From Eledone cirrhosa (Eukaryota), in the NCBI GenBank assembly GCA_964016885.1, contig OZ024741.1, positions 46,066,001 through 46,130,000 on the forward strand: 64,000 bases of DNA, written 5' to 3'. The notes beneath the pieces were generated by a model, which was not told where the DNA came from, searched no databases, and saw nothing but the letters and a program-made list of their open reading frames with translations. Positions 22,257 through 49,192 of the stretch are shown one piece after another. Within the stretch, counting starts at the first letter, position 1. Each line of letters begins with the position of its first letter. Position numbers and translations under genes: made by a program.

Positions 22257-22909
22257 ACGATAAACGGAAAAAATGAATATAAAAACTGAGCATTATAATA
22301 AATGTTCGGTGAATCCATACGTACATATATATATGTGTGCATGTATGTATATATATATGCATACTACTGTAGGTATTTTAGGTCTTTATACATATATGTA
22401 TGTACGTATACATACTTATATTTAAGTAACAGCCGTACTAAGAGTGAGAAATGAAATTTCGTTTCATTTTTTCCGTTTATCGTTTTCGGTACCCCGGCCG
22501 ATTAACTCACTCGATATGCAAATTAGGCTGCTCAGCCGTTAATATGCATAAGGAAAGTATATACTTTCAGACGTTCAATCATCTGGCAGGAAGGTATACG
22601 TTGCTGACGATAGCTAATAAGCTTGAAACTAGTACAGCGTTCCTTTGTCAGTGTTGAACAAATAAGCAACGATGAATGCTAGACACTACGGCTTAATACG
22701 GGATGTTTGTTTACAAACACACCGAGCATTATAATAAATGTTCGGTGAATCCATACGTACATATATATATATGTGTGCATGTATGTATATATATATACAT
22801 ACTACTGTACGTTTGTATACATATATGTATGTACATATACATACTTATATTTAAGTAACAGCCGTACTAAGAGTGAGAAATGAAATTTCGTTTCATTTTT
22901 TCCGTTTAT
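22257..22909 (+). mobile_element. Retrozyme-like family A2: about 1.5 units (~425 bp) with a 21-bp inverted 5' arm
   Basis: Homologous to 12733-13550; 22257-22277 is the reverse complement of about 22463-22483; ends in (AT)n. Confidence 0.85.
22598..22640 (+). ncRNA. Type I hammerhead ribozyme (family A2)
   Basis: ACGTTG-CTGACGA-TAGCTAATAAGCTT-GAAA-CTAG-TA^CAGCGT. Confidence 0.85.
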
Positions 22910-23407
22910 ATATATGTATATATATATATATATACATATATAAAAGTGTCGAAGTCAGTGCTGCAACATGTGTACAAAATTTATTTCCACATTGCAATTA
23001 TTTTGATATCGATCAGCTCGGGGTACAATCACGGTGACGGGACCCGTCCCGTTTTCGGCATTTCATCAGATATGCGAGCTTATATATGCAAAGACACATC
23101 GAACAACGTACCGCCTGTAACTGTTGTTACATACCGAACTAACATATATGTAGATAAATAAATAGATATATTTCTTTATTAGCCACAGGGGCACAAAAGA
23201 AGGGGACAAATACAAAGGGGGAAGTTTACATACAATAAAAACGTGTAAAATGTTATCACAGATGGAATTTAAAAGTTAGTCGATTTTCCCCAATAGAGGG
23301 AGACAGTTTATATGGGTAACACATACCCCCGAAAAAAATGTGCAACCCTCATCTCCAGGAGTACGAAGAGCTTGTACTCCTTTCCTCTCCTCCTCCTTTT
23401 CCTCAAT

Positions 23408-24655
23408 CTACAGGCTGATATAGAGAGAAGGCCCATTCACTCGGGCCATTCTCGCCACTTTCACCCACCTTTCATAAAACTTGCTGGGGTACAGCACCTC
23501 TCTCTCCATCCTGATTCTTCTTCCAAAGTGGTATTTGAAAAAAAGAATCAGTTGTTGGCCGGAGAGAAAGGTGTCTGACCTCAGCCCTTTCAACCTTGTC
23601 CACCATACAACCTCTTTCGCCATAGCTATCACACAAAGGAAAACCGCCTCTCCTTCGTTTTTGAAGGAGGGTGGCGGTTTGATCATGACAATGGACTCGG
23701 TGGTCAACTGGATTGGTCCCACCCGCGACAATAGTCGTTCTACATATCCCCACAGGTCAGTGACGCCCGGGCAGTGTATGAATGCGTGCGCGACGGTTTC
23801 TTCGTCTCGCACGCACCTCGGACAGATCTTTTTTGCAGGGTCCCTGCCCGGGCGCCCATGTCTGTAGAGCTTGTCTCGAACTGGTAGAGCTCCTCGGTAG
23901 CACTGCCAGGCCAGGGACTTTTGGAAGTTGTCCATCGGTCCCGGGCGGAAGGTCCTACCGAACAGACTGGCCAGTTCATCTTCCTCCACGCCCAGAGTTT
24001 CACCGAGCGCGTCGTCGCACTTGCTGCGGACCAACCCTCTATAGAATGACGAAGTGGAGTCTCCACTGATCGCCGGGTCCGCCTGCCAGAGGGCTGTGAG
24101 CGCCTGAGCACATTCGATGTGCCAGTCGCCCATTTTCCTCGGTCTCTGCTTGACCCAGGACTGCAGCTCGGTCAGTGAGACGAGTCGTGGGAAGGCTCGC
24201 CTCACGAACGGGGCCCACACCGGTTGTCCGGTGAGGAATACGTAGAGATGCCGCAGCCTGAGCGCGTGTTTGCGCATCGTCAACCACGGCATCCCCAGCC
24301 CTCCGTTAGAAGGGTGTTGGCAGCAGATGGATCTTCTTACCAAAGGAGCCCGCCTCTTCCAAAGGAATCGGAAGAGGGCGCGCTCCATTTTGGCGAGCGT
24401 TTTGGCTGGACAAGGCACGACGGTCAAGCGGTAGTAGATGGCGGACGCTATAAAAGTGTTCGCCACCTCCGCTCGACCTTTCAAGGATAGTTTGCACTCG
24501 GCCCACTTCTGGGTGAGTGCAAACACCTTGGCCGTCACTTCGTTCCAGTTCTTCTCCACCTGGAGGTCCGGACCAAACCAGACCCCGAGCAGCTTTACCG
24601 GTCCTTCCGTCCAGCGTCCGACGACGCCATCGGAAGGCATCGGTCTGCCTCTGCA
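23408..24655 (-). CDS. Tx1 ORF2 C-terminal part (post-RT region and zinc-binding CPRC...ET..H...HC), variant A
   Basis: ORF 23408..24712: VKLLGVWF, LSLKGRA, GGLG, CPRCVRDEETVAHAFIHC. Confidence 0.85.
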   Translation of the reverse strand, partial: CRGRPMPSDGVVGRWTEGPVKLLGVWFGPDLQVEKNWNEVTAKVFALTQKWAECKLSLKGRAEVANTFIASAIYYRLTVVPCPAKTLAKMERALFRFLWKRRAPLVRRSICCQHPSNGGLGMPWLTMRKHALRLRHLYVFLTGQPVWAPFVRRAFPRLVSLTELQSWVKQRPRKMGDWHIECAQALTALWQADPAISGDSTSSFYRGLVRSKCDDALGETLGVEEDELASLFGRTFRPGPMDNFQKSLAWQCYRGALPVRDKLYRHGRPGRDPAKKICPRCVRDEETVAHAFIHCPGVTDLWGYVERLLSRVGPIQLTTESIVMIKPPPSFKNEGEAVFLCVIAMAKEVVWWTRLKGLRSDTFLSGQQLILFFKYHFGRRIRMEREVLYPSKFYERWVKVARMARVNGPSLYISL

Positions 24656-47323: not shown

Positions 47324-47404
47324 ACTCCCTGATGACGTAAGGTTTCTCTGTGGATACGCTCCGTAACCATATTTATTCCCTTAGAGAAACTAATTAGTTG
47401 GAGT
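47324..47404 (+). ncRNA. Type I hammerhead ribozyme with large loop II (family C)
   Basis: ACTCC-CTGATGA-CGTAAGG...CCTTAGA-GAAA-CTAATTAG-TT^GGAGT; palindromic stem III. Confidence 0.78.
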
Positions 47405-48286
47405 GAAATTTTAGTAAGTAAGTCAATTTTCATAACTTTCTTATTTACGTCTTTCATATATATATATATATAGTTATGTAATAAACAACATAAGGCAATT
47501 ATTCCATTTACCAGTGGTTTCTTAAAAGCAAAAAATTTTGCTTTATCAGAAAGAAAAAATCTTGGTCTGTTTATTGAATTTGGATTTTAAAAACGAAAAT
47601 GCAATCTATATGAAAGTGAGGCTGGAGAAAGAAGAAGGAAAGGAAAAATAAAATAAAAACACACATGCAAACACAGACACACACACACAAATGCATACAA
47701 ACACACCCCACCACCACCCCACTCTCAAGAGCGTGAAATTAATAAACATTCGTTGTACTGCCTCTCTGTTTTGTTCCTGTTCAAATTTTCCATTATATAT
47801 ATATATATATATATATATATATATATATACATACACTGATACATACACACACACATATACACATATATATGTGTATATAAATACACACACACACATACAT
47901 ATACACATATATACATACGCACATAAATATCAACACATCCATACATACACATACATATATACAACCACACACACATGTATACACACATATATATATATAG
48001 AAATAGAAATATATATATATATATATATATATATATATATATATATATATATATATATATATATGTGCATACACATACACATACATAGCCATACATACAT
48101 ACATATACATACATACATACATGCACACAATCATACCTATATACACACGTACATACATACACATACATAAATGCATACATATGCATGTACAAAATTAGAA
48201 AAATATACACACACATATATATTCACACACATATATATATATATATATATATATATATATATATATATATATATATATATATATAT

Positions 48287-49192
48287 AAACAAATAACGAA
48301 ACGAAATTAAATTTCGTTTCGCTTCTAACTCACTTTTGTATGACTGACGCTTAAACAATTAAGTTAAAGTGTACATCTACATATGTATACGGAAGTATTA
48401 GTATGCATATAAATACACACATGTATACATATGTACATGTACTGAATTTTTCACTGGACACTTTACAGTGAGTGTCCAGCTAGTCTGTATGTAACCACAC
48501 AGGGTTTTAGAGTCATACGAGTTTGACCGGGTTTTAGAGTCAAACTCGTATGACTCTAAAACCCGGTCCGTCTGTGTGGGTACATACAGACTAGCTGGAC
48601 ACTCACTGTAAAGTGTCCAGTGAAAAACTCAGTACATGTACATATGTATACATGTGTGTATTTATATGCATACTAATACTTCCGTATACATATGTAGATG
48701 TACACTTTAACTTAATTGTTTAAGCGTCAGTCATACAAAAGTAAGTTAGAAGCGAAACGAAATTTAATTTCGTTTCGTTATTTGTTTTTATCGTTTCCGC
48801 TGAACCGGTGCGTACAATGACTCACGTTCTATGCAAATTAGTCTACCCACTACTAATTTTCATAGAAAAAGCATATAACGATATATGCTTTTACAATTCT
48901 CTAGAGAAGCCGGAAGATGGGTATATATTGCTGATGAGATGTAATAACATCGAAACTAGTCCAATATTCCTGTCTGGCTCTCTGGAGAATAGAGGAAATG
49001 TGTTTCCTTGAAAACTCGTATGACTCTAAAACCCGGTCCGTCTGTGTGGTTACATACAGACTAGCTGGACACTCACTGTAAAGTGTCCAGTGAAAAACTC
49101 AGTACATGTACATATGTATACCTGTGTGTATTTATATGCATACTAATACTTCCGTATACATATGTAGATGTACACTTTAACTTAATTGTTTA
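48287..49192 (+). mobile_element. Retrozyme-like family B: about 1.4 units of 470 bp with a ~240-bp inverted 5' arm, in (TA)n
   Basis: AAACTCGTATGACTCTAAAACC at 48542 and 49012; 48287-48527 is the reverse complement of about 48539-48788; layout homologous to family A. Confidence 0.88.
48925..48967 (+). ncRNA. Canonical type I hammerhead ribozyme (family B)
   Basis: ATATTG-CTGATGA-GATGT AATA ACATC-GAAA-CTAG-TC^CAATAT. All core nucleotides and the G-C stem II closing pair are present; GUC cleavage after 48961. Confidence 0.93.

Follow-up and report, generated by a model that had tools for sequence, protein, structure and literature searches.

Tandem elements, their inverted arms and the hammerhead motif

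The window, a 64,000-nt stretch of Eledone cirrhosa contig OZ024741.1, contains tandem elements of three families (A, B and C) and a longer insertion (D), located at the following window positions:

7340..8436, (+): relative of family A, unarmed; 2.3 × 471 bp; both ends in (TA)n; predicted hammerheads at 7625 and 8096
8458..9765, (+): insertion D; 130-bp inverted arm (8458-8587) and 1.18-kb non-coding forward part, without a tandem
12733..13551, (-): family A copy, unarmed; 1.9 × 421 bp; predicted hammerheads at 13037 and 13458; both ends at TA-rich tracts
22257..22277, (-): family A inverted arm; 21 bp of the unit's 3'-end region, 100% match to 22463-22483
22288..22909, (+): family A forward part; 1.43 × 436-bp unit; 3' end in (TA)n
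22596..22642, (+): family A type I hammerhead motif, predicted; core 22604, predicted cut after 22634, palindromic stem III
46499..46881, (-): family C inverted arm; 383 bp, 96-97% identity, crossing the unit junction; hammerhead copy with core 46745; outer end in (TA)n
46878..47460, (+): family C forward part; 1.11 × 524-bp unit; 4-nt overlap with the arm; 3' end in (TA)n
47322..47407, (+): family C type I hammerhead motif, predicted; core 47329, long stem II, predicted cut after 47399
48288..48524, (-): family B inverted arm; 237 bp; outer end in (TA)n, sharing its template site with the family A ends
48525..48541, (.): family B junction piece; 17 nt between arm and forward part, templated by the arm strand
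48542..49192, (+): family B forward part; 1.39 × 470-bp unit; 3' end in (TA)n
core 48931, (+): family B hammerhead, predicted; predicted cut after 48961

The units of families A, B and C measure 421–524 bp, with a GC content of 0.35–0.36, and are repeated 1.1–2.3 times; at the three named loci (22257, 46499 and 48288), the units are 436–524 bp in 1.1–1.4 copies. The family B unit is about 64% identical to that of family A across ~340 nt. Insertion D possesses a predicted type I hammerhead (core 9571), and its right end is inferred from a TA tract. Two short hammerhead fragments are situated at 45905-46075 and 46295-46482.

A type I hammerhead is predicted in every A, B and C unit, and the window yields 11 matches, compared with a mean of 0.1 and a maximum of 1 in 30 shuffles. 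The motif scan required both stems I and II; the 40-nt stem II limit of the first pattern missed families C and D, and the widened scan dropped the motif of the neighbouring Penelope-like element (PLE) and the two short fragments, whose stems are weak. The Rfam search at the gathering score gave 0 matches in the window; hence, the hammerhead assignments rest on the custom motif scan, complemented by folds in families A and C. Two consecutive ribozyme-bearing units, the 'active' criterion of Li 2026, exist at 7340-8436 and 12733-13551, and the named loci contain one forward ribozyme each. The frames in the units are short and of low complexity, apart from a 107-aa antisense ATG frame in the family C arm. 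No PLE protein match was found in the units by tblastn, and none above inclusion with a local N-terminal profile. An RHYG-like stretch in family A, picked out by eye as a relic ORF start, was unsupported by search.

The 22257 arm (E 1e-6 within 850 bp) overshoots the usual family A end by 3 nt and is separated from the forward part by a 10-nt spacer (22278 onward). A match between this spacer and a PLE 3'-end word was put down to chance, with five occurrences in the window. The outer flank of the arm is not (TA)n, the nearest TA tract lying 68 nt from its outer end; this locus is therefore bordered by (TA)n on one side only. On the family C template, the outer end of the arm lies 115 nt beyond the right end, and the arm differs from the forward copy by 10 mismatches and 1 gap in 384 positions. 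The family B arm differs from its forward copies by 3 mismatches, an 8-bp gap (a deletion in the arm) and a 2-bp gap.

The sequence-only reading had described the three named loci as a partial forward tandem with an inverted partial copy in front of it, and each of them bears this layout out. The (TA)n setting that it gave to these loci holds for 46499 and 48288 and for one side of 22257. All the named loci have the inverted arm. Of the insertions that it did not mention, the two further family A copies are unarmed and insertion D is armed. In total, three of the five tandem-unit loci in the window are armed, as are insertion D and the PLE.

Family C is high-copy in sequencing runs X1/X2. Divergent family C contigs from these runs cover 46920-47408 continuously, with no single piece spanning the unit, and the depth is lowest at 47064-47125, just right of the arm's end site. 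Support from these reads is not specific to the locus, its right flank (47497-47790) being repetitive. Close to the end site of the arm, 405 of 485 molecule ends are piled up at 47044; this pile was dropped as a candidate family 3' end. It is likely an effect of a restriction library, since each of the 6 end piles listed coincides with an AATT site (8% of positions). Two opposite-strand joints, with 3 reads each, were set aside as insufficiently supported and as potential ligation chimeras.

The neighbouring Penelope-like element

The one full PLE in the window consists of two parts:

39546..40745, (-): PLE inverted arm; 1200 bp, 5'-truncated; GIY-YIG coding region and pLTR
40745..45628, (+): PLE forward part; 801-bp direct repeats, 99.9% identical; broken ORF

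The ORF is arranged as an N-terminal domain (ATG at 41398), an Asn-rich stretch, the RT, a CX4CX2C linker and the GIY-YIG domain. The CX4CX2C motif, followed by YxIxC...YIGET, lies in the arm's frame and is aligned with homologues; the match to RVT_1 is weak. Craig 2021 (PMC8557442) describes the linker between the RT and the C-terminal GIY-YIG as CX2-5CxxC. As judged by its domain order, the element at 39546-45628 is of the Neptune/Nematis type. The earlier description of this element as autonomous-type, with an inverted arm and a partial tandem, is upheld, but its ORF is broken by a stop at 42094-42096 and a 22-bp deletion near 44617. The two ends of the element fall 26 and 148 nt into its ORF.

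The pLTR contains a hammerhead core and stem II at 41174, 45257 and 39795, with stem I failing the strict scan. When the arm is compared with both forward pLTR copies, 13 changes are private to the arm and 1 to the forward copies, which suggests that a second RNA template lies behind the PLE arm. The same test on the retrozyme arms gave 4 of 7 changes as arm-private, which is not significant (P 0.17). In comparisons of units A, B, C and D with this pLTR, only low-complexity DNA matched.

Insertion ends and the mobilising machinery

At the armed loci, an inverted copy of the element's 3' region is located head-to-head before the forward part. Arm and forward part always belong to the same family, and four of the five junctions between them have no TA spacer. 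On the template, the two parts overlap by 174–246 nt at the three named loci, 679 nt in the PLE and 1101 nt in D. The two ends are offset by a 'tail' of 65–69 nt in B, 115 nt in C, about 77 nt in D (right end inferred) and 122 nt in the PLE, and by only 3 nt at 22257. The element ends sit inside the unit, away from the predicted ribozyme cut, and four copy ends in families A and B, which are 64–90% identical, share one homologous stop site. Hairpins before the end sites have z values of -2.3, -1.3, -2.0 and -4.2, with only family C clearly beyond chance.

A TA tract lies ≤6 nt from 10 of the 11 mapped element ends, against a background of about 2%, these ends coming from one window and reader-chosen loci and not being independent of one another. 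In a dispersed ~200-bp repeat, none of 20 ends is that close to a TA tract, and the 3' ends of three LINE-like elements lead into (TATC)n-type tracts. The LINE-type target-site duplications (TSDs) and tails that the sequence-only reading had named as grounds for abandoning a PLE were absent: neither a non-TA TSD nor poly(A) was found at any of 7 loci, where a TSD within (TA)n would be invisible. An 8-nt word common to the family C flanks was rejected as a TSD, as it does not abut the ends. Matches of the units to the 3' ends of the window's LINE-like or SINE-like repeats were sought, and none was found.

Taken as a whole, families A, B and C are non-coding hammerhead-motif tandem elements with PLE-style arms in (TA)n, and a Penelope-like RT/GIY-YIG protein probably inserted them in trans. 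The sequence itself displays the units and their motifs, the arms, the ends that abut TA, the fixed end sites within the unit and the offsets between ends; the steps of the mechanism are reconstructed from them. A PLE protein would bind multimeric or circular unit RNA, and its endonuclease would cut both strands of a (TA)n tract. Reverse transcription would begin at an internal site 50–310 nt downstream of the ribozyme cut, aided by 2–5 nt of TA pairing. Extension of both cut ends would generate two 5'-truncated cDNAs joined head to head, forming arm and forward part with offset ends, and extension of a single cut end would leave an unarmed copy. The TA-pairing step sits awkwardly, because the RT start site of Anolis Poseidon is not homologous to the cut DNA (PMC11167929). 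A linker-bearing Neptune/Nematis-type element or a Naiad element are the candidate partners. Against the PLE explanation, two of the five tandem loci are unarmed, and the 22257 arm is 21 bp long and ends outside (TA)n.

A more specific version remains tentative. In PLE integration, both (TA)n ends may be extended on two RNA molecules, TA-primed at a fixed internal position directly 3' of a hairpin, with the cDNAs then joined head to head, while retrozymes without kinship to the resident PLE would use structure alone.

The loci could instead be products of PLE machinery that derive from an autonomous PLE outside the window, either as its end-pieces or as by-products with internal deletions, and not self-propagating retrozymes. 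Truncation of PLE 5' ends would yield identical arms and TA ends; insertion D and the fragments at 45905-46075 and 46295-46482 resemble such pieces, and the single forward ribozyme per named locus, the family C depth minimum and the derivation of retrozymes from pLTRs in a 2026 preprint point the same way. This origin is nevertheless unlikely, as the window has three family A loci that share a closed 421–471 bp unit, with up to 2.3 copies and 75–90% identity, the family C contigs (X1/X2) tile 46920-47408 continuously, and a search of the units for a relic of the PLE ORF start found none. In L1 twin priming, the inverted and forward segments are adjacent and non-overlapping on the template. The arm ends and forward starts at the named loci are non-adjacent and overlap, so that these 3'-duplicating arms follow PLE geometry and not the adjacency of L1. 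Mobilisation of the RNAs by a LINE RT, with inversions that arise by twin priming or by capture where fragile (TA)n tracts break, is accordingly improbable. In its favour, the window is rich in LINE-like elements, LINEs figure among the possible partners named by Cervera and de la Pena, and twin priming on a multimeric template could mimic the duplication; the loci, however, are devoid of poly(A), of a non-TA TSD and of a 3' end common to the window's LINE-like or SINE-like repeats, whose own ends are not at (TA)n.

The arms would be uninformative about the enzyme if they were later fold-back rearrangements or assembly artefacts beside break-prone (TA)n. The 48288 locus is indeed a near-symmetric fold-back with a templated central piece, and no arm junction of the window is among the joints listed from reads. 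Substitutions and indels, however, separate the arms of C, B and the PLE from their forward copies, as would not be expected from a chimeric read; the C arm contains sequence that does not mirror the forward 5' end, and the outer arm ends stop at family end sites, making this reading very improbable. Inverted ends and TA flanks would also fit MITE-like DNA transposons inserted at TA, with the arms as terminal inverted repeats. This model is largely refuted and has scarcely any probability left, given arm lengths from 21 to 383 bp, two offset ends, two unarmed family A copies and circularly permuted tandem units with hammerhead motifs.

Mobilisation of the retrozyme RNAs by PLE RT/GIY-YIG machinery, as the sequence-only reading proposed, thus fits every signature tested, but is not accompanied by DNA homology to the neighbouring PLE. 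Its remark that the mobilising partner is not established is apt in that trans-mobilisation is demonstrated in neither the 2020 nor the 2026 text, but PLEs had already been proposed in the former and argued for in the latter.

Comparison with known retrozymes and Penelope-like elements

PLE-driven mobilisation of hammerhead retrozymes is likely, and as a hypothesis it was published in 2020 and 2026; it is unchanged here and is supported from one window. The integration scars provide an independent line of evidence, unused by both papers proposing a PLE partner, and extend the case to a mollusc. A literature search found no octopus retrozyme paper and no integration-signature argument for PLE mobilisation of retrozymes in print. 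The fixed internal end site and tail offer a concrete substrate for the existing in vitro PLE assay. Furthermore, if the two-template, structure-only version is true, the arms would serve as a genome-readable fingerprint by which each retrozyme family could be matched with the PLE that mobilises it.

Cervera and de la Pena 2020 (PMC7229834) named PLEs a strong candidate partner of animal retrozymes and demonstrated expression, cleavage and circles of metazoan retrozymes, whereas the motifs of the present loci are predicted ribozymes. Both sets have small non-coding tandem units (a few hundred bp) of low GC (35–36% here), each with one type I hammerhead that has a short palindromic stem III. 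The words 'inverted' and 'microsatellite' have 0 occurrences in the accessible text of that paper. The July 2026 preprint argues that animal retrozymes are non-autonomous PLE sequences using PLE machinery, based on co-occurrence in 35 genomes and Xenopus pLTR homology, with 24 of 57 families matching TEs. It reaches the same conclusion, but without a mollusc, integration signatures or a tail; conversely, the window shows the signatures, but its units have no homology to the pLTR of its one full PLE.

EN+ PLE insertions (Arkhipova 2013, PMC3846280; Craig 2021, PMC8557442; Frangieh 2024, PMC11167929) are described with an inverted pLTR and a tail. The elements in the window resemble them in the head-to-head inverted 5'-truncated copy, the partial tandem, the one-end tail, the AT-rich or (TA)n target and the internal RT start. 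They differ in that the A, B and C units code for nothing and the tails are longer (65–122 nt, compared with 30–40 nt). In the case of Anolis Poseidon, internal RT starts and a tail are reported, with both strands extended and ribozyme cleavage not needed (PMC11167929), and the end offsets of B, C, D and the PLE match this mode. According to Craig et al. (PMC8557442), non-LTR TPRT does not show tandem or inverted pLTRs or tails. Arkhipova 2013 (PMC3846280) attributes the inversions to self-priming. The PLE arm in the window, by contrast, diverges from both forward copies in the way expected of a second template, and this divergence bears on whether inverted pLTRs originate from two templates or from self-priming.

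Mobilisation in trans driven by the pLTR has been reported in Adineta. Comparable non-coding elements are the MRC1-type non-autonomous Chlamys elements (PMC8557442), which are PLE dependants with pLTRs and multicopy head-to-tail insertions; these, unlike the elements described here, are algal, mostly without hammerheads, and generally resemble their autonomous family at the 3' end.

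Layout of the hammerhead insertions and the neighbouring PLE

The window is animal DNA with many microsatellites, and the counts cover this one 64-kb window, plus one read set on one family. At all three named loci of the non-coding hammerhead families A, B and C, self-comparison bears out the earlier observation of a forward partial tandem preceded by an inverted partial copy (the arm). The same comparison delimits the arm and direct repeats of the Penelope-like element (PLE).

640-1065, minus strand: remnant of a second PLE family, 3' part, with GIY-YIG C-terminus and a 152-bp partial tandem
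8458-9765: insertion D, 130-bp inverted arm and 1.18 kb non-coding body, no tandem
22257: family A, 21-bp arm (perfect inverted copy of 22463-22483), 10-nt spacer, then 1.43 copies of a 436-bp unit
39546-45628: PLE, arm 1200 bp, direct repeats 801 bp
45905-46075 and 46295-46482, minus strand: two short unrelated fragments with hammerhead-like cores, lying between TA runs
46499: family C, 383-bp arm, then 1.11 copies of a 524-bp unit
48288: family B, 237-bp arm and templated 17-nt piece, then 1.39 copies of a 470-bp unit

Two further family A loci (7340-8436 and 12733-13551) have no arm, and three of the five tandem loci in the window are armed. Families A and B are about 64% identical over 340 nt. 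Insertion D, a fourth armed hammerhead locus in which no PLE coding relic is detectable, is separated from the 7340 retrozyme by just a TA run. The inverted arms and the units are a real feature, and the elements add to a class already described.

A scan for type I hammerhead motifs, requiring paired stems I and II, gives 11 matches in the window versus 0.1 on average over 30 shuffles; ten lie within families A, B and C and insertion D, whose predicted motif folds well (z -3.8). At its gathering score, Rfam gives no hammerhead match in the window. Stem III of the predicted hammerheads is short and palindromic, a form described for metazoan and PLE hammerheads working as dimers (PMC4209133, PMC6765202). 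The eleventh match (11262) lies outside A, B, C and D; this lone motif (11262-11340) directly follows a TA-rich tract, belongs to no repeat found, and may be chance.

The two short fragments, the PLE and loci C and B make up a 10-kb nest with no fewer than five insertions. A 333-bp fold-back at 51016-51348 (arms 91-93%, a spacer in the middle, (TA)n at its right end) holds a decayed hammerhead-like stretch, judged by eye, and is possibly another armed stump. A short repeat common to 46133-46205 and 59662-59720 (85% over 59 bp, opposite strands) contains a hairpin and lies beside TA or GA runs, and a 34-bp minisatellite (96 copies, 97% identity) occupies 52295-55568.

Ends in TA tracts and tails

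Eleven ends were mapped against an internal template copy (eight in A, B and C, two in the PLE, one in D), the right end of D being excluded because it is defined by the TA tract itself. Ten lie at most 6 nt from a TA tract, compared with about 2% of the positions outside such tracts. The nominal P is too favourable, given non-independent ends and reader-chosen loci. The (TA)n target proposed in the sequence-only reading stands for these ten ends, but not at 22257, where 68 nt separate the arm's outer end from a TA tract. As controls, none of the 20 ends of a dispersed ~200-bp repeat (ten copies, SINE-like by size alone) falls within this distance, and the 3' ends of three LINE-like copies enter (TATC)n-type tracts. 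The minus strand of 23151-36588 contains nested LINE-like copies, with an AATAAA word and then 3' ends in (TATC)n-type tracts. LINE-type TSDs, which had been named as one sign against PLE retrotransposition, did not appear: a non-TA TSD abuts none of the seven loci, where a TSD within (TA)n would be invisible.

The distance from the predicted ribozyme cut to the element ends, all downstream of it, is 54-310 nt; none coincides with the cut, and one homologous site is the stop of four copy ends from families A and B. Within one insertion, the two ends are offset on the template by 65-69 nt in B, 115 nt in C, about 77 nt in D, 122 nt in the PLE and 3 nt at 22257; those of the PLE fall 26 and 148 nt inside its ORF. 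These offset ends correspond to the PLE tail, which Frangieh et al. (PMC11167929) tie to two internal RT start sites within the first ~120 nt of the ORF. In locus C the forward part begins at 46878 (template 47402), 3 nt past the predicted cut, as if copied to the terminus of a self-cleaved RNA; this is one of eight 5' ends and could be chance. Furthermore, the template end continues into the TA tract for at least 2 nt at all seven independent end sites and for at least 3 nt at five (chance per site 0.22 and 0.11, respectively), two copies reaching this match only with a nearby mismatch or indel. Such continuity suggests short primer pairing.

Origin of the inverted arms

Every arm is a second copy of the 3' region and overlaps the forward part by 174-246 nt in the named loci, 679 nt in the PLE and 1101 nt in D. 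L1 twin priming yields adjacent, non-overlapping segments, so it does not fit arms that overlap the forward part. For non-LTR TPRT in general, tandem or inverted pLTRs and tails are described as not seen (Craig et al., PMC8557442). In this window, independent neighbouring insertions have TA runs between them and differ in family; the arms adjoin their own family directly, and the 22257 spacer starts with TATA. This geometry argues for arm and forward part as the probable product of a single event. The arms differ from their forward copies, which excludes mirrors from chimeric reads.

The PLE arm (39546-40745), compared with the forward copies at 40745-41423 and 44828-45506 over 685 aligned columns, carries 13 private changes, the forward copies having 0 and 1 (P 6e-6 on the assumption that the three copies were the same at birth), and retains 22 bp missing from the forward ORF. 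Snap-back self-priming, by which inverted arms are read in Arkhipova 2013 (PMC3846280), would leave the arm identical at birth; the private changes suggest that the PLE arm may have been copied from a different template molecule. Alternatively, the divergence could stem from insertion next to an older copy, or from direct repeats evened out by gene conversion or by assembly polishing. In the same two-template comparison, four of seven changes in the retrozyme arms are private to the arm, which is not significant (P 0.17).

Mobilising partner and known systems

The PLE protein has its best named match in Octopus vulgaris (67% identity), which makes an octopod the likely host. The PLE copy is disrupted by a stop (42094) and by the loss of 22 bp near 44617. 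A CX4CX2C linker precedes its C-terminal GIY-YIG, a trait of Neptune and Nematis; Naiad PLEs also prefer (TA)n and occur in Octopus (both Craig et al., PMC8557442). Upstream of the RT, an in-frame asparagine-rich (AAC/AAT) stretch at 42140-42600 recalls the N-rich inserts described in Penelope ORFs from Adineta (PMC3846280). An imperfect 107-bp palindrome (45634-45740) immediately follows the right end of the PLE, and the second-PLE remnant at 640-1065 adjoins an (ACC)-rich array of 18-bp period.

Reads from four of 12 listed runs were mapped on 46878-47790, the right end of which was masked as repeat. They show a high copy number for family C: two runs from a single sample gave 3843 and 3949 contigs, many of them 90-99% alike. 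These contigs tile the unit continuously, no single piece spanning it. The window's own arm junction is absent among the seven read joints listed. The listed piles of read ends, one of them considered as the family 3' end, fall on AATT sites and are probably an effect of the library.

The units have no DNA in common with the neighbouring pLTR (the PLE terminal repeat) beyond low-complexity matches, and no ORF relic was found in them; hence, proximity does not name the partner. The earlier inference that retrozyme RNAs are retrotransposed by PLE RT/GIY-YIG machinery gains from the TA ends, the tails, the arm overlap and the lack of a non-TA TSD, but not from any DNA common to the local PLE. PLE machinery in any form is very likely behind these insertions, and the units are probably mobilised by it as self-propagating retrozymes.

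The idea of PLE mobilisation is already published: Cervera and de la Pena 2020 named PLEs as a strong candidate partner, and Li, Clavereau and Pollet 2026 argued for it, citing in vertebrates both co-occurrence and homology to pLTRs. In a word search of the accessible text of Cervera and de la Pena 2020 (PMC7229834) and Li 2026, whose supplements may hold such detail, neither inverted arms nor tails nor microsatellite targets were found to be used. No octopus retrozyme paper, or paper applying integration scars to retrozymes, was found in a search thin on subscription journals and Repbase reports. The integration-scar evidence is a modest addition, from one window. According to Frangieh et al. 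(PMC11167929), the Anolis protein cuts AT-rich DNA and extends both strands, ribozyme cleavage being dispensable. The tails in the window exceed the 30-40 nt cited there and, unlike the apparent TA pairing in the window, the RT start of the Anolis protein is a non-homologous site.
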